47,089 nucleotides of DNA from Candidatus Hodarchaeota archaeon (GCA_029856365.1 JAHQWW010000020.1:1-47089); one strand, 5' to 3'. Counted from the stretch's first letter, positions 32,519-40,715 are shown. The notes: a model not told the origin generated them from the letters alone. Numbers and translations: made by a program.

Positions 32519-33958
32519 TTAAAAATATGTATCACTTAATTCAACACCCCATTTCGCATAATCAACCGAGCTTGCAATCTTGTAATACAATTTAATGTCA
32601 AAATCTCTCTTGATCAAATCAATTTTCCGAGCAAAGGCTTTAATCCAATAATTAGGCAATTTAAGGTAACCAAAATAATAATAAGGTGATTCTTCATCTT
32701 GATAATAGACATCACATCTTGGGAAGCTAAGGAAATGTTGAATCCATGGAATTGTATGATCTTCAGCGGAAACAAAGAAGAAAACTGTTAGATCTAGTCC
32801 AATATTGTAATATTGATTCATTTTAACTAATAGCTCTTCCTTACCGTATTCTTGAAGTCGTTTTGAAATTTCTGGCGCTGAAACTTCAATAGTATTGCTG
32901 AGTTGTCTGATACTTGTAAAACTCCCTTTAGTGGTAAGAAAATCAAGGATCCTAATGTCAGCAGGAGTAAGTGGTCGAAAGGGATTAAAAGAAGGTTTAA
33001 GAGAGAAAAGAATGTCAGGACTAGGAGAAATGAGGGTAATGTCTGCATTTCCGTGGAGAAATGGAGGAGGAGTGCGCCAGGTATCTTCTCCTTGAGACAA
33101 GCCAGTTAAATTCCATGAAGAAACTTTTGTTGTCAATGTTTGAGAGATTATAACTTCAAGATTGTCCTGAAGGGAATACATTTTTTTTGATTTTTTATAA
33201 GGGATCTGGACAACGCTGAATGTTCCTATTGTTAAATTAGTTGATAAGAGTAAATATTTCTCAAATTGTCTTGGGAAATTATTTGAATGTACAAACATAG
33301 TTGTTTCGTAGCCCAGTTTGCCCATATCCAAGAAATGAAGAGCATTGACCATTTGCAATAGACGGATAATATTCATACGTCGCAAAACGGTTCGAGGAGA
33401 GATATCCAAATGCTTTGCGAAATCCATTTGAGTTGGTTGTCTATAATACACTGGATTATGCTTTTCTAAACCCTGAAAAGCCTTTAGAAATGATATATAA
33501 AGATCATCAAGAGGTACCGTGAAATTTGATAAGATAGGGTAGAGAAATTCGAATAAGGCTTCCTTTTCTCCATTAATCTCTTTTGACAACAGCTTTTGTA
33601 TGTAAAATTCATAGAGTTGCTTATGGTGATAACATATTTCATAAGCAACTAATTTCAAAGGGAATAAATGACCTCCCCTTTTCCTCCACTTTATTACAAT
33701 AGAAGCATAGTCTTTGAGCCAACTTTCATTTAATTCTAGGCAATTATCCTCTTTAAATTTCTCAAAGAATGGAAGAATATGAGATTTTAGGATCTGTTTT
33801 GTTAAAACTAAAGTATCTTCTAAAGAAAAATTCTTAGCCTTTTCATGGATGTATAACCAGATGTTTAGAAAATCAAGTACAAATTCCTCTATTTTGTAGT
33901 CTTCGAGGTTTTGTCGGAAATTATCTAGAATTGGGGGAATTTGTTTAGGGAGAGGCAT
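32519..33958 (-). CDS. Large transcriptional regulator with two Lrp/AsnC-type HTH modules and an N-terminal helical domain
   Basis: PTQMDFAKHLDISPRTVLRRM...LDMGKLGY and LTPADIRILDFL...SIRQLSNTIEVSAPEISKRL...NIGL. Confidence 0.75.
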   Translation of the reverse strand: MPLPKQIPPILDNFRQNLEDYKIEEFVLDFLNIWLYIHEKAKNFSLEDTLVLTKQILKSHILPFFEKFKEDNCLELNESWLKDYASIVIKWRKRGGHLFPLKLVAYEICYHHKQLYEFYIQKLLSKEINGEKEALFEFLYPILSNFTVPLDDLYISFLKAFQGLEKHNPVYYRQPTQMDFAKHLDISPRTVLRRMNIIRLLQMVNALHFLDMGKLGYETTMFVHSNNFPRQFEKYLLLSTNLTIGTFSVVQIPYKKSKKMYSLQDNLEVIISQTLTTKVSSWNLTGLSQGEDTWRTPPPFLHGNADITLISPSPDILFSLKPSFNPFRPLTPADIRILDFLTTKGSFTSIRQLSNTIEVSAPEISKRLQEYGKEELLVKMNQYYNIGLDLTVFFFVSAEDHTIPWIQHFLSFPRCDVYYQDEESPYYYFGYLKLPNYWIKAFARKIDLIKRDFDIKLYYKIASSVDYAKWGVELSDTYF

Positions 33959-34019
33959 TTGATGCCGAAAAGAAGGGTAGTATCATTTAAAAACCTGTCT
34001 AGATAAGATCTTCGAATGT

Positions 34020-34049
34020 GCAAAAGAGTAAGATACTCGCTCATTTTGC
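34020..34049. promoter_or_regulatory. Imperfect palindrome, candidate operator between divergent regulator and peptide genes
   Basis: GCAAAA-GAGTA-AGA-TACTC-GCTCA-TTTTGC, followed by two AACCGA direct repeats. Confidence 0.35.
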
Positions 34050-34098
34050 CATAACCGAGAAAAAAAACCGAATAAAAGTATAAGGTGTGTAAAAAACA

Positions 34099-34251
34099 AT
34101 GAGAAAAATAAGAAATCGTGAAAAAAGAATTGATGTTGAATTAACGCTATTAAAACTACTCCCCTGGTTATTCCTGATATTACTATTCATTGCAGCATCG
34201 TCATTGGGAACTGCAGTCGTTGCTGGACCAGCTAGTACAATTATAGACTAA
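34099..34251 (+). CDS. 50-aa secreted prepeptide (not in the ORF track)
   Basis: MRKIRNREKRIDVELTLLKLLPWLFLILLFIAASSLGTAVVAGPASTIID*. AGGTG RBS upstream, basic n-region, hydrophobic h-region and an AVVA/G signal peptidase-like site. Confidence 0.65.
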   Translation: MRKIRNREKRIDVELTLLKLLPWLFLILLFIAASSLGTAVVAGPASTIID

Positions 34252-34742
34252 ATTCAAGGCTAGAAAACACAAAATTAACTAATCATTAGTTCTTTAATGT
34301 ACCATAATATAGGTCTCCCTACTTTACCCAAATTAAAGAAACCCGACAAAATCGACGAATGCCCTCATAGAAGTGGATATTCTCAAGATTAACCCAGAGA
34401 TTACCCCTCATGGCTCTTTCAGGTTATTTCAGCCCTTAATATACTACCGTAACCCTCCCAAGGTAATACGTGGCCTTTTTATGCCTCTCCACAACTCACA
34501 AAATGTGTTAGCAAAATGATTTATTGTCCAAGTGTTAATTAATTTTTCATACCAAGCGCCTTATTTTTTCTGTAACATAATTGTTTTTGTAATAATGGAG
34601 GGAGATGTTTCTCACATGTATTTTGTGCCCGTTTTTGTTATTTTTGAAATTTCATACCAAATTTTTTGATTAATATAGACATATTTTTTCGAATTATGTC
34701 CAAAACTAGTTACTTCCCAATATTTCAAGAGATGTTTTTCAT

Positions 34743-35060
34743 GTGTTATTCAAAGCAAAGTTTTCCAAAAACACATGGACGTTGTATAAAGTGCAAGTCA
34801 CAGACCGATTTGGCATTAAAAAATCATTAGATCGAGTATTTCAATTATTATTCATATCCACGAATCTCTTTTCTTCGTTTGAGCTTCAAGATAAAATCTG
34901 CCTGCTTCAAATAAACGAAAAGTACCAATTTTCTGACCCAGAACTCAAACAACTCCTCACATATTTCCTTGACTTAATCGAATATTTTTCTCATGAGAGG
35001 CTGCAAATGATCCAGGATCCTACAGATAGTTCTCGGTATGCGCTTACTGGAGGTTTTTGA
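34743..35060 (+). CDS. Hypothetical protein
   Basis: 105-codon ORF whose stop abuts the next gene's likely ATG (35062). Start is uncertain. Confidence 0.4.
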   Translation: MLFKAKFSKNTWTLYKVQVTDRFGIKKSLDRVFQLLFISTNLFSSFELQDKICLLQINEKYQFSDPELKQLLTYFLDLIEYFSHERLQMIQDPTDSSRYALTGGF

Positions 35061-35061
35061 T

Positions 35062-35526
35062 ATGTATTCAGAATTTGCATCAATTCGAAAAGTAGAACCA
35101 AGTCGTAAAAAAGTGGATCATAAATCTCTATTAGACCAACCATTCTTTCAATCTAATGAAACAAAAATAATAGAGGCAACAGAGAACGATATTCACCGCT
35201 TAGCAGATCGTGCCCTTTTGTTATTATCGTTTAAAGATACTTCTACCCAAAGCTTACGCTATGTCCTTAATGTACTTGGTATTCGCACCTTAGAAGAGAA
35301 AAGGAACATTTTACATGAAATTTATAGCTTAATTCGGGAAGGTATTGTATATGTCCCCCGAGGCCTCCCTCAATTGATCGATCAAGGTTCTCGTCTTGAC
35401 ATTAACAACTCTTTAGAAGCCGAAAGTATCGATCTATGCCTCCTTCGTCCCTATGAAGAATTAATTAGAGAAATTCAAAACGAAATAACAGAATTGAATA
35501 CTACCAAAGTTATCAAGAACCCATAA
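35062..35526 (+). CDS. Hypothetical wHTH-like protein, paralog A
   Basis: GGAGGT RBS before ATG 35062. About 57/100 identical residues, gapless, to 36031..36408. Confidence 0.75.
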   Translation: MYSEFASIRKVEPSRKKVDHKSLLDQPFFQSNETKIIEATENDIHRLADRALLLLSFKDTSTQSLRYVLNVLGIRTLEEKRNILHEIYSLIREGIVYVPRGLPQLIDQGSRLDINNSLEAESIDLCLLRPYEELIREIQNEITELNTTKVIKNP

Positions 35527-35557
35527 AAGACTTATCAGCTAATTAGATGGATGTAAA

Positions 35558-35995
35558 ATGATGATCCATAAAGATATTTCACCTAAAGATCGTCAAAAGC
35601 ACCGAGAAGTCGAACAACTAAAGGAATACCTGAAACTGGCAAATGGATCTTCAGAACAAGTTTTGATCGCCACTTGGCGATGTATAAAACATATGCAATC
35701 AGAACTCGAACTACCCTCCCAAACTCCTGTTGAAGAACTTGTAAAGCTTTATAAAAATTTGGAGGAGATTCGGAAGGTCTTTAATTACCATATCAACAGT
35801 TTTAGTCAATTAAATGAACTCTTACATGAAATTAAACTTGTTGGGGATAAATTAAACCTCCCAAATAACTGTTCAATAACTGATATCTTGTCTCAAATCA
35901 ATTCTGACTTGATTCCTTCCTTAGGGCTTAACGAAAATTCATTACTCAAGCAATTATTACTATTATACCTATCAAAGCAATTTCAAATCATATAA
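35558..35995 (+). CDS. Hypothetical helical protein
   Basis: ORF between the two paralogs, same strand, short spacers. Confidence 0.65.
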   Translation: MMIHKDISPKDRQKHREVEQLKEYLKLANGSSEQVLIATWRCIKHMQSELELPSQTPVEELVKLYKNLEEIRKVFNYHINSFSQLNELLHEIKLVGDKLNLPNNCSITDILSQINSDLIPSLGLNENSLLKQLLLLYLSKQFQII

Positions 35996-36030
35996 AGATT
36001 TATCATTGACATACAAAGGACTAGAGTCCA

Positions 36031-36408
36031 ATGAAAACGAAAAAAAACTGTTTGAATGAAATCGAAATAACTGAGGAAGAAAGGGCTCAATTAACGGATC
36101 GTGCTCTCATTCTATTATCCTTCAAGGACACAGAGAAACAAAACCTACAGATTCTGCTAAAGATCCTTGAGATACGAACATTACAAGAAAAGGAGATTAT
36201 CTTACGGGAAATTTTTCGACTTATTCAGGAGGGGATCGTCTATGTTCCACAGGGTTTAGCTAAATTAGTTGATGAAGGAACTCTTTACAATATCAATGAC
36301 CCTGAGAAGATCAGAAACATTGATTTATACCTTCTTTGTCCTTATGATCAACTTATTAAAGAAATTCAAGATGAGATCATCAAACTGAGAGCAAAATCAG
36401 GCTCATAG
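36031..36408 (+). CDS. Hypothetical wHTH-like protein, paralog B
   Basis: Shares DRALxLLSFKDT...IRTLxEK..IL.EI..LI.EGIVYVP.GL with paralog A. Confidence 0.75.
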   Translation: MKTKKNCLNEIEITEEERAQLTDRALILLSFKDTEKQNLQILLKILEIRTLQEKEIILREIFRLIQEGIVYVPQGLAKLVDEGTLYNINDPEKIRNIDLYLLCPYDQLIKEIQDEIIKLRAKSGS

Positions 36409-36549: not shown

Positions 36550-38070
36550 ATGTTTTTCCCTTTCTCTCTTCAATCTGCCTCGAATTGGTTAGATTCTGTT
36601 CCTAATTATCTTCTAACTCTTCCAGAAGACTCAAAATATATTAATCATAAAGAATTTCATCATTATCTTGCTTCAACCTTGGAGGCTTTTTTTTCAGAAT
36701 CACCCTCAGAATTTCTTTCAACTATTCTTACAATTTTGAAAAAAGCCACGGAGGCCGGAAAGTATGTTATTCTGGAAACATTACATTTGGCAAGTGTTAT
36801 TTGGGAGAAACTGGCCCAATATGAAAAAATTCAACCAGTTTTAACTGAATTAGCATTATCTACTGATAAGCTTTACTCTAAAAGCGCAACTACTCTTTCA
36901 AGTAAACTGGAAGACATTCCCTTAACTCATGAAGAAGAAGAAACAGTTGAAGAAGCAATGTCTAAAAGAGAGGAAGTAGCAGCTTTTGATGAAGTAGTCC
37001 TTGATGACATCCTTGAAGGTGCTTTGGAAGAGCTTACATCAGAAAAACTAAAATTAGAAGTAACTCCTGAAATTGCAGAATCGACACCTTCATCAACCCC
37101 TCCCCCTAAACCTGCTTTAAAGGCACCACCTGGCCCTCCTGGCGGAGTTCCGCATCCATCTCGCCCTGTCGCTAGGGCTGCTCCCCCAATTCTCCAACCT
37201 GCTCCATCAACTCCCCCTACAGAAGCACCTCCACCAGTAACAACAGCGGCTCCTACTAAAGCAGCTGAAAATCTTGATATTCGTGGTGAGGAGATATCAA
37301 AAAAACGAAAAAAAGCAATAAAAGAAGAATTCAAGACTGAAATCGAAGAACCCACAGTCACTCCCAAAATATCTAAACCTGAAACTATTCATACTCATGT
37401 TCACTATTATTCTAGAATGAATCCCCGAAAAACCTATCCATTTACAGTAACTTTGTCGCAGATAGCGAAAAAGATTGCTGCTGATAAAAAACATTTCCTA
37501 TCGGGTGAGGAAGAAAAAGAAACTCGGGGAGAGTTTGAACTGCTTGATATTACTAAACGATTAGTTGTTGAACCATTACTGAGTGGATGTTTAGTACAAC
37601 CCACTTCTCAAATTATTGATCCAAGACCACAAAACCTCCCAAGAGTGCTAACATTCTTTATTACTCCGTTAGTAGAAGCAGGCTTCCGAACCACATCTCT
37701 CGAAGGATCCCTCTTTGTGAAAGATGAGAGAGGAATAGTTTTACTACGATTAGATCTCCCAGAATTAGCTGTTGCCAGTCATCGTGTCAGTCAAGTAGCA
37801 GCTTTGATAGGAACAATCGGAGGTGGGGCTATGCCAGCTGTCGACTCATTATTCGGTGTTAACCTTCAAGTAACAATGGCTGGTCAATTAGCATACCTTC
37901 TTCCACAACTTGCTAGATCTTTCGATATGATGTGGATGATAACTATTGCTCAAGTCCTTCTTTTTGTTGGCGCCATAGGTTGTGCAATTCTTTGGTGGTG
38001 GAAAAAAGGCCGAGCAAAAATAGTGAAAGTTGCTCCCGAACGTACTATGACCCTCCAGCTCAGTCAATGA
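36550..38070 (+). CDS. Proline-rich, C-terminally membrane-anchored protein
   Basis: Helical N-terminus, acidic and polyproline linker (PPPKP, PPGPPGG, PPT, PPPV), beta-rich domain and C-terminal TM followed by WWWKKGR. Confidence 0.75.
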   Translation: MFFPFSLQSASNWLDSVPNYLLTLPEDSKYINHKEFHHYLASTLEAFFSESPSEFLSTILTILKKATEAGKYVILETLHLASVIWEKLAQYEKIQPVLTELALSTDKLYSKSATTLSSKLEDIPLTHEEEETVEEAMSKREEVAAFDEVVLDDILEGALEELTSEKLKLEVTPEIAESTPSSTPPPKPALKAPPGPPGGVPHPSRPVARAAPPILQPAPSTPPTEAPPPVTTAAPTKAAENLDIRGEEISKKRKKAIKEEFKTEIEEPTVTPKISKPETIHTHVHYYSRMNPRKTYPFTVTLSQIAKKIAADKKHFLSGEEEKETRGEFELLDITKRLVVEPLLSGCLVQPTSQIIDPRPQNLPRVLTFFITPLVEAGFRTTSLEGSLFVKDERGIVLLRLDLPELAVASHRVSQVAALIGTIGGGAMPAVDSLFGVNLQVTMAGQLAYLLPQLARSFDMMWMITIAQVLLFVGAIGCAILWWWKKGRAKIVKVAPERTMTLQLSQ

Positions 38071-38137: not shown

Positions 38138-39388
38138 ATGCTCTCAACAGTGATTCGCTCATATCCTAATCAACGTACAATATCCTTGGGAATTGTTACT
38201 CATAGAGGGGCAGCTCATGATACACTTCCGGGTACCACCCAAGTTCTGTTACAAACCATGGCTAGGGGAACAATACAACATAATGAAATCGAAATCGCTA
38301 GATTGATTGATGGCACAGGTGGCTCACTGTTTTCTTCTACAGAAAAAGATTTCTCTATTATTGGTGCTCAAATACAACCAAAATATGCAATCCGAACTTT
38401 GGATCTTCTGTTCGAGATGATTTCGCACCCCACCTTAGAGGAAACACATTTCCTTATTGAAAAACAGAATTTAGTCCAGATTTTCCACCAGGTTCAATCA
38501 AATCCAATACGAAGGATGATGATTTTTGATGCGGATAAAGCCACTTTTGGAGAGAATCATCCCCTCGGCCGCTCTCAAATTGGAACACCTGAATCCTTAG
38601 AAAAACTCACGAAAGACGATCTGCAAAAAACTCATCATGAATTACTGATTAATCCGTGGGGATTTGCCGTGGGAGCGATTTCAGAAAGTCTCCATAAACA
38701 AATAGACCAGAAAATAACTAAATTTCTTTCTACCCAAAGCATAAAAGCTCAAAAACTTCAATCATTTCCTCAAAGAGACGTTCCACCAAATAATCTTTTG
38801 GCTTCATCTGCAAAGGAAGAGGGTAGTGTATATCTTTGTGTTAACATAATAACTGATGTAAGTCCGAGTACAATTGGCCTAGCACGTTTTACCAGTGCTC
38901 TCCTTGGAGAATCTTTTGGCTCCAGAATGTTCTCAATTCTGAGAGATCAAAAATCATTTGGTTACATTGCTGGATCGACTTTGAAGCTTTTAGATAAATC
39001 GTTAGTACTACGTTGCTATATGGAAACATCTCCAAAGAGGACAGAAGAAGCAATAAATTCGTTAGTGGAATTGCTTACCGATCTAAGTAGAGAGATTATG
39101 TCACAAGAAGAGTATAATACAACTCGTGATTTTATTTTAGGACAACTTGATTTATCTTTTGATGATTCCCGTTCAACAGCTTCTCGAATCATAAATAGGG
39201 GAGCCCACGGTCTTCCACCGAACATTGAATCAGGATATAAGGAAATTAAAGCAGTTTCTTCTGAGGGTATCAACTCTTGGTGGAAAAAGAATCTTCTTCG
39301 TCCTGAAAATGTTAGCTTAGCTATTGTTGGCGATATAAATCCCGCTCGGATTCAAGAAAGTTGGAAAAGAAATACTTATTCCGAATAA
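38138..39388 (+). CDS. M16B peptidase, non-catalytic subunit
   Basis: M16 fold motifs (GAAHD, RGT, HPLGR..GT.ESL, SRMFSILRDQKSFGY), but HxxEH is replaced by QVLLQ. Confidence 0.85.
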   Translation: MLSTVIRSYPNQRTISLGIVTHRGAAHDTLPGTTQVLLQTMARGTIQHNEIEIARLIDGTGGSLFSSTEKDFSIIGAQIQPKYAIRTLDLLFEMISHPTLEETHFLIEKQNLVQIFHQVQSNPIRRMMIFDADKATFGENHPLGRSQIGTPESLEKLTKDDLQKTHHELLINPWGFAVGAISESLHKQIDQKITKFLSTQSIKAQKLQSFPQRDVPPNNLLASSAKEEGSVYLCVNIITDVSPSTIGLARFTSALLGESFGSRMFSILRDQKSFGYIAGSTLKLLDKSLVLRCYMETSPKRTEEAINSLVELLTDLSREIMSQEEYNTTRDFILGQLDLSFDDSRSTASRIINRGAHGLPPNIESGYKEIKAVSSEGINSWWKKNLLRPENVSLAIVGDINPARIQESWKRNTYSE

Positions 39389-39401: not shown

Positions 39402-40715
39402 ATGCTGAATGATCAATCTGAAATCGTAACCTTGGATAATAATCTTAGATTACAACTAGTATCGATTCCGGGTGGGAAAACGACTTTATTCGTGGTAGGT
39501 TTCCATGCAGGAGCAATGTATGAGGAAGGATTTGGCCCTGGATCAAATGATGGGATCAGTCATTTTATAGAACACATGTTCTTCAAAGGAACCCCTACAA
39601 GAACCACGAAGCAAGTAAACGAGGCGTTCACACGCTTGGGGGCTGATTTAAACGCAGGTACATCCTTTGATCATACAGCGTATTATGCAAAAGTCCCCAG
39701 TCGGAACTTACATAAAGCTGCAGAAATTTGGAAGGAATTGTTAGTTGATAAGACCATTGACCCAATAGAATTTAAAGCAGAGAAAGAAGTTATTTTACAA
39801 GAGATACAATTTCGTGCGGATATGCCAGAATTTGATACAAACCTTACAGTATGGAAAAAACATCTCATGGGTACAGCACTCGAACACAATATCCTTGGAA
39901 CACTTGATTCTGTAGCGGGTATTACCCCTGAAATGATGCTTGATTACATTGGGCGTCTGTATGCTTTTGATAATGCAATTGTAATTCTGGTCGGAGGTTT
40001 CGATTTAGAAGCAGAAAAACAATATTTAAGCTCTATTTTCAGTGACCCAATCGCTCAACCACGAAAGCACCCAATTTACCCACCAAATGTCGATTATCCT
40101 ACTCCAAAAAATGGTATGAGTAATATTTCCTTTTACAAAAAAGAACTCTCAAAACCCCTTTCTTATGTTGCTTTAGCTTGGACCTCTCCTGGCATTCGAT
40201 CAACAGATTTTTTCCCATTACTGTTACTAAATACATTCATTGGAAATTCACGCACTTCATTATTGTACAGGGAAGTAATTAGCAAAGGAATAGCCAGTGT
40301 TTGTCATTATGGATTTGAAGCTCTCTATGATGTTTCAATAGGTAATATTCTCTTTGTAACTCCTCCTGACAAGACAGAAGAAGTCTTTCAAAAGGTTATT
40401 GACCTAATGGTTACTGTTCGTGATCTCAAAATTTCCCCTCAAATCGCTACCGCGCTGAAAGAGGAAGTTTGGGGGTCCTATCTTTCTGAAATCGAGGATC
40501 CTAGTAATTATGGCATTGATCTTCTCCAAAAGTACATTAAATTCCACCAACCCCTCTCTGCAAATGAATTTCAGAAGAATATCTTTCAAATCAGCCCAGA
40601 AGATATTCAGAATGCAAAAGATAACTTACTAGAGAACTTCAACATAACAGTTTATGCTACTGGTACGGTTCCACAAAATTGGGAACCTCATTTCCCAAAA
40701 CATGGGCCCTGGTAA
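39402..40715 (+). CDS. M16B Zn-peptidase, catalytic subunit
   Basis: GISHFIEHMFFKGT, LNAGTSFDHT and EKEVILQE. Confidence 0.92.
   Translation: MLNDQSEIVTLDNNLRLQLVSIPGGKTTLFVVGFHAGAMYEEGFGPGSNDGISHFIEHMFFKGTPTRTTKQVNEAFTRLGADLNAGTSFDHTAYYAKVPSRNLHKAAEIWKELLVDKTIDPIEFKAEKEVILQEIQFRADMPEFDTNLTVWKKHLMGTALEHNILGTLDSVAGITPEMMLDYIGRLYAFDNAIVILVGGFDLEAEKQYLSSIFSDPIAQPRKHPIYPPNVDYPTPKNGMSNISFYKKELSKPLSYVALAWTSPGIRSTDFFPLLLLNTFIGNSRTSLLYREVISKGIASVCHYGFEALYDVSIGNILFVTPPDKTEEVFQKVIDLMVTVRDLKISPQIATALKEEVWGSYLSEIEDPSNYGIDLLQKYIKFHQPLSANEFQKNIFQISPEDIQNAKDNLLENFNITVYATGTVPQNWEPHFPKHGPW

Follow-up and report, generated by a model that had tools for sequence, protein, structure and literature searches.

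A conserved small prepeptide gene divergent from a double-Lrp/AsnC regulator in Hodarchaeales: a candidate archaeal peptide-signalling cassette

In the Sec-dependent RRNPP and arbitrium systems of Bacillota and their phages (PlcR-PapR, NprR-NprX, Rap-Phr and AimR-AimP), a propeptide gene of ~40-50 codons adjoins the gene of a cytoplasmic receptor-regulator, and the propeptide carries an N-terminal export signal with its active part at the extreme C-terminus. RRNPP receptors contain a TPR-type peptide-binding domain, to which an XRE-type HTH is added in the DNA-binding members. The Rgg-SHP, ComR-ComS and PrgX-PrgQ pairs have TPR-type RRNPP regulators as well, and their peptides, mostly devoid of a classical Sec signal, are exported and processed by PptAB/Eep. 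Regulators of the Lrp/AsnC family, such as LrpA, FL11 and Ptr2, are single modules of ~150 aa; their assemblies are dimeric or octameric, and their ligands are free amino acids. A further group, the Alo systems of Paenibacillus, is lineage-restricted and comprises many peptide-receptor pairs per genome, the activity of which has been tested experimentally (PMC7425212). Cell-cell signalling in archaea is barely characterised; as its examples, a 2025 study names a carboxylated AHL of Methanosaeta and a small molecule, not yet identified, of Haloferax (PMC12240190). In the literature searched, we came across neither any archaeal case in which a gene-encoded peptide signals to a receptor in the cytoplasm nor the cassette presented here. 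Its hosts form one genus of the Hodarchaeales, which belong to the Asgard archaea and are the archaea placed closest to eukaryotes.

The cassette lies in a window of 47,089 nucleotides, by which we mean the whole stretch of DNA that was analysed. It combines a 50-codon prepeptide gene on the plus strand (34099-34251, from the ORF call and its homologs) with the gene of a 479-aa regulator on the minus strand (32519-33958) and the intergenic region that the two share. The genes stand head-to-head with their start codons 140 bp apart, and this arrangement, first described in an earlier note made from the sequence, is borne out by both the coordinates and the conservation. The same note had called the small ORF unannotated, which needs correction: NCBI MAG records carry its homologs as 'hypothetical protein', with locus tags adjoining those of the regulator. 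The source names of these public MAG records indicate Hodarchaeales. A search of positions 33900-34900 against Rfam gave no match at E ≤ 1. We regard the gene pair and its co-inheritance as solid, with very little room for doubt.

A profile search for the prepeptide across all 22 genomes of the genus returned 46 matches in 21 of them, with one to six per genome. The open frames of the homologs are all equally short at ~50 codons, and the stop falls at an identical position in an alignment of 49 unique sequences. A search for longer proteins containing the prepeptide found none, a result that the tool itself rates as weak evidence. The possibility that the ORF is merely the truncated 5′ end of a longer gene, raised in the earlier note, fails on this conserved stop and on the lack of a longer form among the hits. 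Comparison of six orthologs yields a pS of 0.43 and a pN of 0.10, corresponding to an overall pN/pS of 0.24. Taken together, the number and spread of the matches, the constant length and stop and the low pN/pS argue that the prepeptide gene is not a chance ORF.

The product is laid out as a basic n-region (residues 1-19), a hydrophobic core of 14 residues (20-33), a small-residue c-region (34-39, SSLGTA) and a variable tail that runs to residue 50. When the six orthologs are compared part by part, pN/pS is low in the N-terminus (0.12) and in the hydrophobic part (0.14) and rises to 0.62 over the final 13 residues. The C-terminal tail, taken as residues 38-50 (34210-34248, plus strand), is the fastest-evolving part of the prepeptide and the candidate for the released peptide; it ends in GPASTIID. 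At the other end of the product, the 19 N-terminal residues are strongly conserved throughout the main subfamily, in which R5, R7 and P22 are nearly invariant. This basic N-terminus is more conserved than an ordinary n-region requires, an observation that counts against reading the pair as a signalling cassette.

Comparison of the coordinates from the profile searches of both families places 42 of the 46 prepeptide matches divergent from a regulator match within about 0.5 kb. One of the other four is arranged in tandem, downstream of the regulator (G001:C1); one lies at a contig start and two have no regulator match on the same contig, and as these three are not judgeable for orientation, the divergent arrangement applies to at least 42. 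Searches of the loci around regulator homologs by tblastn and with a profile HMM of the prepeptide recover a divergent homolog of 48-52 residues, ~100-160 bp upstream of the regulator, at ~30 loci. The earlier note had suggested scanning the regulator homologs for similar small ORFs, and the scan extends the pattern a long way: homologs down to ~24% identity face a divergent ORF in which the leader is conserved and the C-terminal tail varies.

Two distant regulator subfamilies, at ~32% and ~24% identity, likewise face a small ORF that has a signal-peptide-like start and a tail of 10-16 residues. In the ~32% subfamily, as few as two residues precede the hydrophobic core, the junction reads for example SQG, and the tail starts with [IV]ADP and ends Pro-rich. 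In the ORF of the ~24% subfamily, a hydrophobic core follows a basic N-terminus, the G/[IV]ADP junction is conserved, and the tail consists of 10-15 residues rich in proline. Common to all three subfamilies are a signal-peptide-like leader, a small-residue junction and a short tail, and the long basic N-terminus is therefore not the conserved part. Within each of the 14 genomes that hold two or more cassettes, the last 8 residues of the prepeptide are never identical between cassettes. Tails are sometimes common to orthologs of different species, as for the window's genome and G006. Some regulator paralogs occur without a peptide gene, namely tandem copies beside a complete pair and the second copy in the window's own genome (contig C109), next to which a peptide gene was searched for and not found.

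The regulator, in which no TM segment is seen in the sequence, was dissected by Pfam, PDB profile searches and AF2. Its N-terminal domain (residues 1-165; 33464-33958, minus strand) is mostly helical and folds alone with a pLDDT of 86.6. Behind it follow, on the same strand, a first Lrp/AsnC module with a wHTH at residues 170-203 and a RAM-like domain at 204-285 (33104-33451), and a second with a wHTH at 329-375 and a RAM-like domain at 376-479 (32522-32974). A Pfam search with the single sequence places HTH_24 at residues 332-375 with 20.7 bits, below the cut-off. A profile of 26 regulator homologs run against PDB sequences matches Lrp/AsnC regulators in both modules, at residues 320-409 (E 1.3e-5) and at 163-226 (PH0061, E 7e-4). 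According to the profile and to the order of secondary structure in the AF2 model, the succession of a wHTH and a RAM-type beta-alpha-beta-beta-alpha-beta domain occurs twice in the chain.

The AF2 model of the whole regulator reaches a pLDDT of 88.7 and a pTM of 0.81. Over the whole chain, its fold matches NirDL best (4ch7 in Foldseek, E 4.9e-9; 4czc_A in VIA-align, Z 13.0 and rmsd 4.7 over 269 residues), with ordinary Lrp/AsnC regulators ranking next at Z 6-7 on residues 327-479 in VIA-align. Since profile matches are found in both halves and the fold matches are to NirDL and Lrp proteins, the modelled regulator is best described as a single-chain pseudo-dimer of two wHTH plus RAM-like modules. 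The two Lrp/AsnC-type HTH modules noticed earlier are thus upheld by the PDB profile search as well as by the fold. Both HTHs keep the usual recognition-helix pattern, and inspection of the RAM-like domains by eye noticed no motif of a canonical amino-acid pocket. No TPR family is among the Pfam matches of the regulator at E ≤ 1. The N-terminal domain, whose best PDB match when it is modelled by itself stays at Z 5.0, is lineage-specific and its fold is unrecognised.

All genomes sampled within the genus (21 of 21 in one search, 16 of 16 in another) encode full-length relatives of the regulator, in 1-12 copies. Beyond the genus, only weak partial matches to the Lrp modules and no full-length relative were found, both in a search that took in 19 additional genomes from the same order or class and in one of 250 Asgard genomes sampled evenly over the phylum. 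When identities are compared domain by domain, no domain is clearly faster or slower than the others, so that no specificity domain can be named. Accordingly, no domain of the regulator is seen to co-diverge with the tail, which is a further observation counting against a signalling role.

The intergenic region, for which 7 orthologous regions were aligned and ~30 paralogous ones were read, displays a recurrent order of elements: regulator ATG, 27 nt, a TATA-like box, a bipartite site, an A/T-rich TATA-like box, GGTG and prepeptide ATG. The TATA-like box of the regulator (33986-33993, minus strand), 27 nt from its ATG, is conserved among the 7 orthologs and between the genes of most paralogous cassettes. 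Its placement would imply a promoter element of the regulator gene and a leaderless or near-leaderless mRNA. It is followed by the bipartite operator-like site CTAGA-N7-TTCGAA (33999-34016, plus strand), which is conserved and intergenic-specific. The strict pattern CTAGA-N7-T[CT]CG[GA]A (that is, CTAGA-N7-TYCGRA) is found 11 times in 192 kb of related loci, always between a prepeptide gene and a regulator gene and in one orientation, and once in the 47-kb window, at this very position.

A PWM that includes the window's site scores it top in the 4.24-Mb genome. Built without that site, the PWM gives 8 matches of at least 19 bits in the same genome, against 0-1 of at least 18 bits in reversed and Markov controls. 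The other matches lie on contigs C123 (twice), C107, C78, C62 and C5, with one within an ORF on C194; inspection revealed no convincing small signal-peptide ORF beside them, and these extra operator-like sites may be further targets or relics. Between the genes of the ~32% and ~24% subfamilies the bipartite motif is lacking; it marks the main subfamily. Its half-sites are non-identical and ~13 bp apart, which would fit a protein with two non-identical HTHs, and we infer that 33999-34016 is a candidate binding site of the regulator next to its putative promoter.

An inverted repeat, reported earlier as a palindrome between the genes, does lie at 34020-34049 (no strand assigned), in the window's ortholog group only, and its arms co-change in some orthologs. 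The repeat is imperfect, however, and in an inverted-repeat scan of 30 intergenic regions most of the best palindromes, the window's included, are no better than shuffles. After this comparison, the palindrome was replaced as the candidate regulatory site by the bipartite site, which is the conserved element. On the prepeptide side, a plus-strand segment (34070-34087) holds the A/T-rich TATA-like box (34070-34079) and GGTG (34084-34087), the latter 11 nt before the ATG. The layout 'AACGACTTTAAA ... GGTG ... ATG' recurs upstream of the prepeptide gene in paralogous cassettes, with GGTG 6-11 nt before the start. The box probably acts as the promoter of the prepeptide gene and GGTG as its Shine-Dalgarno sequence.

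The neighbours in the window comprise an MFS transporter, an Mrp/NUBPL-type ATPase, small unassigned proteins and an M16 peptidase pair. Beyond the prepeptide gene lies a module on the plus strand (34791-36408) that recurs beside cassettes. It consists of family A, with ~90 aa and an end in GG-x (34791-35060), and family B, at 35038-35526 and 36031-36408; they are found beside cassettes in 7 and 13 loci, respectively. Neither family has a Pfam or PDB sequence match, and PDB sequence profiles gave nothing meaningful.

A rule count over the 49-peptide alignment, which is a heuristic, finds the features of a Sec-type class I signal peptide, with a positive n-region, a hydrophobic h-region and small residues at -3/-1. 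The (-3,-1) rule holds after the G37 column in 42 of the 49 peptides and after the A39 column in 45. The cleavage AVVA/GPASTIID favoured in the earlier note is not conserved across the family: a cut after A42 suits the closest orthologs only, and the family-wide sites are those after G37 and A39. Because these are the rule-conforming sites, a mature peptide, if there is any, would more likely have 11-13 residues than eight, unless it is trimmed further. The genome contains an archaeal signal peptidase I gene (TIGR02228). PF00717 had also been tried as a model of this enzyme and gave no match; archaeal control genomes were equally silent, which identified it as the wrong family. Matches to the SBP_bac_5 (Opp/Dpp-type) family occur on 11 contigs of the genome, and cultured Hodarchaeales depend on peptides and express Opp/Dpp-type transporters (bioRxiv 10.1101/2025.02.26.640444).

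The hydrophobic stretch of the window's prepeptide reaches 23 residues (residues 20-42), and judged from its length an uncleaved signal anchor is possible. Leader and tail are kept in the distant subfamilies, and therefore an exported peptide appears favoured over a membrane tether. The tails are of low complexity, rich in Gly, Pro and Ala and nearly poly-proline in one subfamily, a composition that is unusual for a specific ligand. These Gly/Pro/Ala-rich tails, the possibly uncleaved hydrophobic span and the regulator copies that stand without a peptide gene count against a signalling reading of the locus.

Complex prediction of the regulator with the whole prepeptide, each with its alignment, lends weak support to a physical interaction. 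The score is 0.60 (runs 0.60, 0.59 and 0.64) versus 0.00 for the best control; of 80 solved complexes 58 pass the mark applied, as do 2 of 110 mismatched pairs, and scores of 0.60 or less come from only 7 of those 80 solved complexes and from both of the passing mismatches. The contacts agree between runs to at least 74%, and the pLDDT of the partner is at least 61. Binding through the tail and binding through the N-terminus are inseparable here, because the prediction reported no interface.

The best reading of the locus is a self-contained cassette of a signalling peptide and its receptor, to which we would give just under an even chance. The 50-aa product would be a Sec-type precursor, inserted N-in and cut near SSLG/TA by the archaeal type I signal peptidase. 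Such a cut would free a C-terminal peptide of ~11-13 residues, possibly trimmed towards GPASTIID. At a sufficient concentration the peptide could be taken up, most plausibly via one of the many Opp/Dpp-type transporters, and would then bind the cytoplasmic 479-aa regulator. The regulator, with its two Lrp/AsnC modules behind the N-terminal domain, is expected to read the asymmetric CTAGA-N7-TTCGAA element between its own TATA box and the promoter of the peptide gene. Peptide binding would alter, upwards or downwards, the transcription of both genes and of the few other promoters that carry the same site. Differing tails across cassettes would in this scheme act as separate channels.

The small protein might, however, never be released. 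As an uncleaved, N-in single-pass micro-protein, it could tether the regulator to the membrane, with its basic cytoplasmic N-terminus binding and releasing the regulator like an anti-regulator and its outer tail serving as a sensing or turnover handle. The N-terminal 19 residues, with their pN/pS of 0.12 and the nearly invariant R5, R7 and P22, are what such a role would lead one to expect, as is a hydrophobic stretch of up to 23 residues, and the weak pass in complex prediction, obtained with the whole prepeptide and with no interface, fits a tether equally well. Three features are harder to reconcile with it: the N-terminal extension is down to two residues in the ~32% subfamily, where leader and tail persist; the conserved small-residue junction obeys the cleavage rule; and a tether gives no reason for tails that differ within one genome. 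We consider it somewhat unlikely, if worth serious attention.

It is also conceivable, if a shade less probable and in our view plainly unlikely, that regulation runs one way only. The regulator would then be an ordinary metabolite-responsive Lrp protein, and the small gene its nearest target, the product being an exported effector peptide (for instance an antimicrobial, an adhesive or a modifier of the surface) that feeds nothing back. Indeed, a divergent layout with a shared operator shows co-regulation, not sensing, and Lrp/AsnC proteins usually bind amino acids. A strict one-to-one pairing maintained through three subfamilies to ~24% identity is, on the other hand, more than is usual for a target gene, and the weak complex pass also counts against one-way regulation, only slightly. 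Finally, NirDL as the best whole-chain fold match raises the prospect of an enzyme: the tandem Lrp-like protein would act like the sirohaem decarboxylase NirDL/AhbAB, or it would bind the leader as a scaffold and modify the peptide in a RiPP-like manner; a conserved leader with a variable core is a RiPP pattern, too. The sequence profiles nevertheless match bona fide Lrp/AsnC regulators and not NirDL, both HTHs retain their usual recognition-helix pattern, a specific DNA site accompanies the gene, and the neighbours examined are neither haem nor RiPP-tailoring genes, all of which renders an enzyme very improbable.

Returning to the signalling cassette, its broadest form would have Hodarchaeales use secreted gene-encoded peptides whose receptors, single chains with a double Lrp unit, make up a new class; a genome would hold several mutually distinct channels (1-6), which might serve density sensing or kin discrimination. 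No earlier peptide system of a quorum-sensing type would then be known in archaea, and this one would have evolved independently of RRNPP; we put it forward tentatively, as a possibility clearly short of an even chance. If the cassette works as proposed, peptide-receptor signalling arose independently on an Lrp scaffold, and Lrp-type ligand sensing can reach beyond amino acids to peptides. Experiments could then directly address social behaviour or kin recognition in the lineage nearest eukaryotes, since peptides and a DNA site are defined and cultured relatives are at hand.

Among the known systems, the Sec-dependent RRNPP and arbitrium cassettes resemble the locus in layout. Here, too, a short propeptide gene adjoins that of a putative cytoplasmic receptor-regulator, and a predicted N-terminal export signal precedes a C-terminal candidate peptide. 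The likeness extends to a conserved leader with a variable mature end, several distinct pairs per genome and Opp as the expected return route. Because the small ORF recurs with a conserved leader and a variable tail and is no truncated gene, the parallel in layout, built from non-homologous parts, holds; the earlier proposal of a quorum-sensing-like analogue is thereby partly supported, its functional side being a candidate reading, and the octapeptide is not favoured by the family alignment. The receptor differs, however, in consisting of two Lrp/AsnC modules and an N-terminal domain of unrecognised fold, with no TPR array or XRE-type HTH identified, and the host is an Asgard archaeon. Since the receptor is positively assigned to Lrp/AsnC and a TPR domain is not recognised, we do not assign the cassette to the RRNPP families and claim no homology to them.

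With Rgg-SHP, ComR-ComS and PrgX-PrgQ, the locus has in common a small peptide gene that is divergent from or adjacent to the regulator gene and an operator, here an operator-like site, in the shared intergenic region, which makes an auto-induction loop possible; it differs from them in the type of regulator and in its predicted Sec-type leader. Like the Alo systems, it represents a lineage-restricted multi-copy expansion approached by the same kind of genomic reasoning, whereas the Alo receptors are bacterial and of RRNPP type. Among solved proteins, NirDL/AhbAB alone was found to join two Lrp-like modules in a single chain. It is, however, an enzyme of haem d1 and alternative haem synthesis, shares an identity of only 12-14% and lacks the N-terminal domain, and the two have no gene context in common. 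In its building blocks the locus resembles the Lrp/AsnC family (LrpA, FL11, Ptr2), with a wHTH and a RAM-like alpha/beta domain per module and a candidate target site that adjoins TATA/BRE, a position known from archaeal activators and repressors of the Lrp type. In contrast to the single modules of that family, two modules are fused here behind a 165-aa domain and accompanied by a peptide gene. The regulator is hence an atypical Lrp/AsnC protein, set apart by its fused double module, its extra domain and its peptide-gene partner.

The inverted repeat GGCAT-TTG-ATGCC extends across the start codon of the double-Lrp/AsnC regulator REG (window 33954-33966) and is kept in seven of seven orthologs; this small element may have an autoregulatory role or may belong to a leaderless mRNA. 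The ~540 bp that separate the prepeptide from the neighboring family A gene (window 34252-34790) are only moderately conserved, at 72% in the closest relative, and contain neither a convincing ORF nor an Rfam match.

Strong matches to the bipartite operator-like motif CTAGA-N7-TTCGAA, located between the prepeptide and REG genes, are also present elsewhere in the source genome, scoring 19-27 bits versus 0-1 matches expected at ≥18 bits. These additional sites lie at C123:4274, C123:4314, C107:14769, C78:4466, C62:3344 and C5:32191, and several of them adjoin a TATA-like box in the same arrangement as in the window. Their neighbors include a membrane protein gene and two ORFs, one lipoprotein-like and the other ABC-ATPase-like. 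The sites could represent a wider REG regulon or remnants of lost cassettes.

The cassettes are recurrently flanked by a two-gene module of families A and B, found in the window (34791-35060, 35038-35526 and 36031-36408) and at the REG loci L005, L017-L019, L021, L023, L033, L036 and L037. Family A proteins are ~90 aa long, share a conserved IQDP motif and end in GG plus one residue. Family B proteins (125-160 aa) combine an invariant LLLSFKD motif with a stretch that resembles a winged helix. Pfam and PDB sequences gave no match for either family. By its terminal GG, family A recalls ubiquitin-like modifiers.

Further downstream, the window encodes a 506-aa protein (36550-38070) with a long Pro/Ala-rich middle, a hydrophobic C-terminal segment and no Pfam match; a homolog also occurs near the cassette of the related genome G021 (L021). 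Two M16 (insulinase-type) peptidases are encoded as a pair at 38138-39388 and 39402-40715, 4 kb past the prepeptide and in its orientation; members of this family cleave small peptides.

The divergent pairing of REG and peptide genes has exceptions. A genome search revealed a second REG-family gene in the source genome (C109:10772-12148; L002 1438-2901), with 26% identity, and a search upstream of it for a small ORF found none. In at least 14 other genomes the orthologs of this gene are preceded by such an ORF, and the peptide has either been lost here or is present as an undetected variant. At L055 (G001:C1:458500-460900), REG is followed by the peptide gene in the same orientation, the sole non-divergent case seen. 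Tandem arrays of two to four REG paralogs, in which a single copy has a peptide partner, occur at L033 (G020:C234), L036 (G001:C14) and L037 (G004:C14). By analogy, the peptide-less REG copies in these arrays recall the orphan receptors of bacterial peptide-signalling families.
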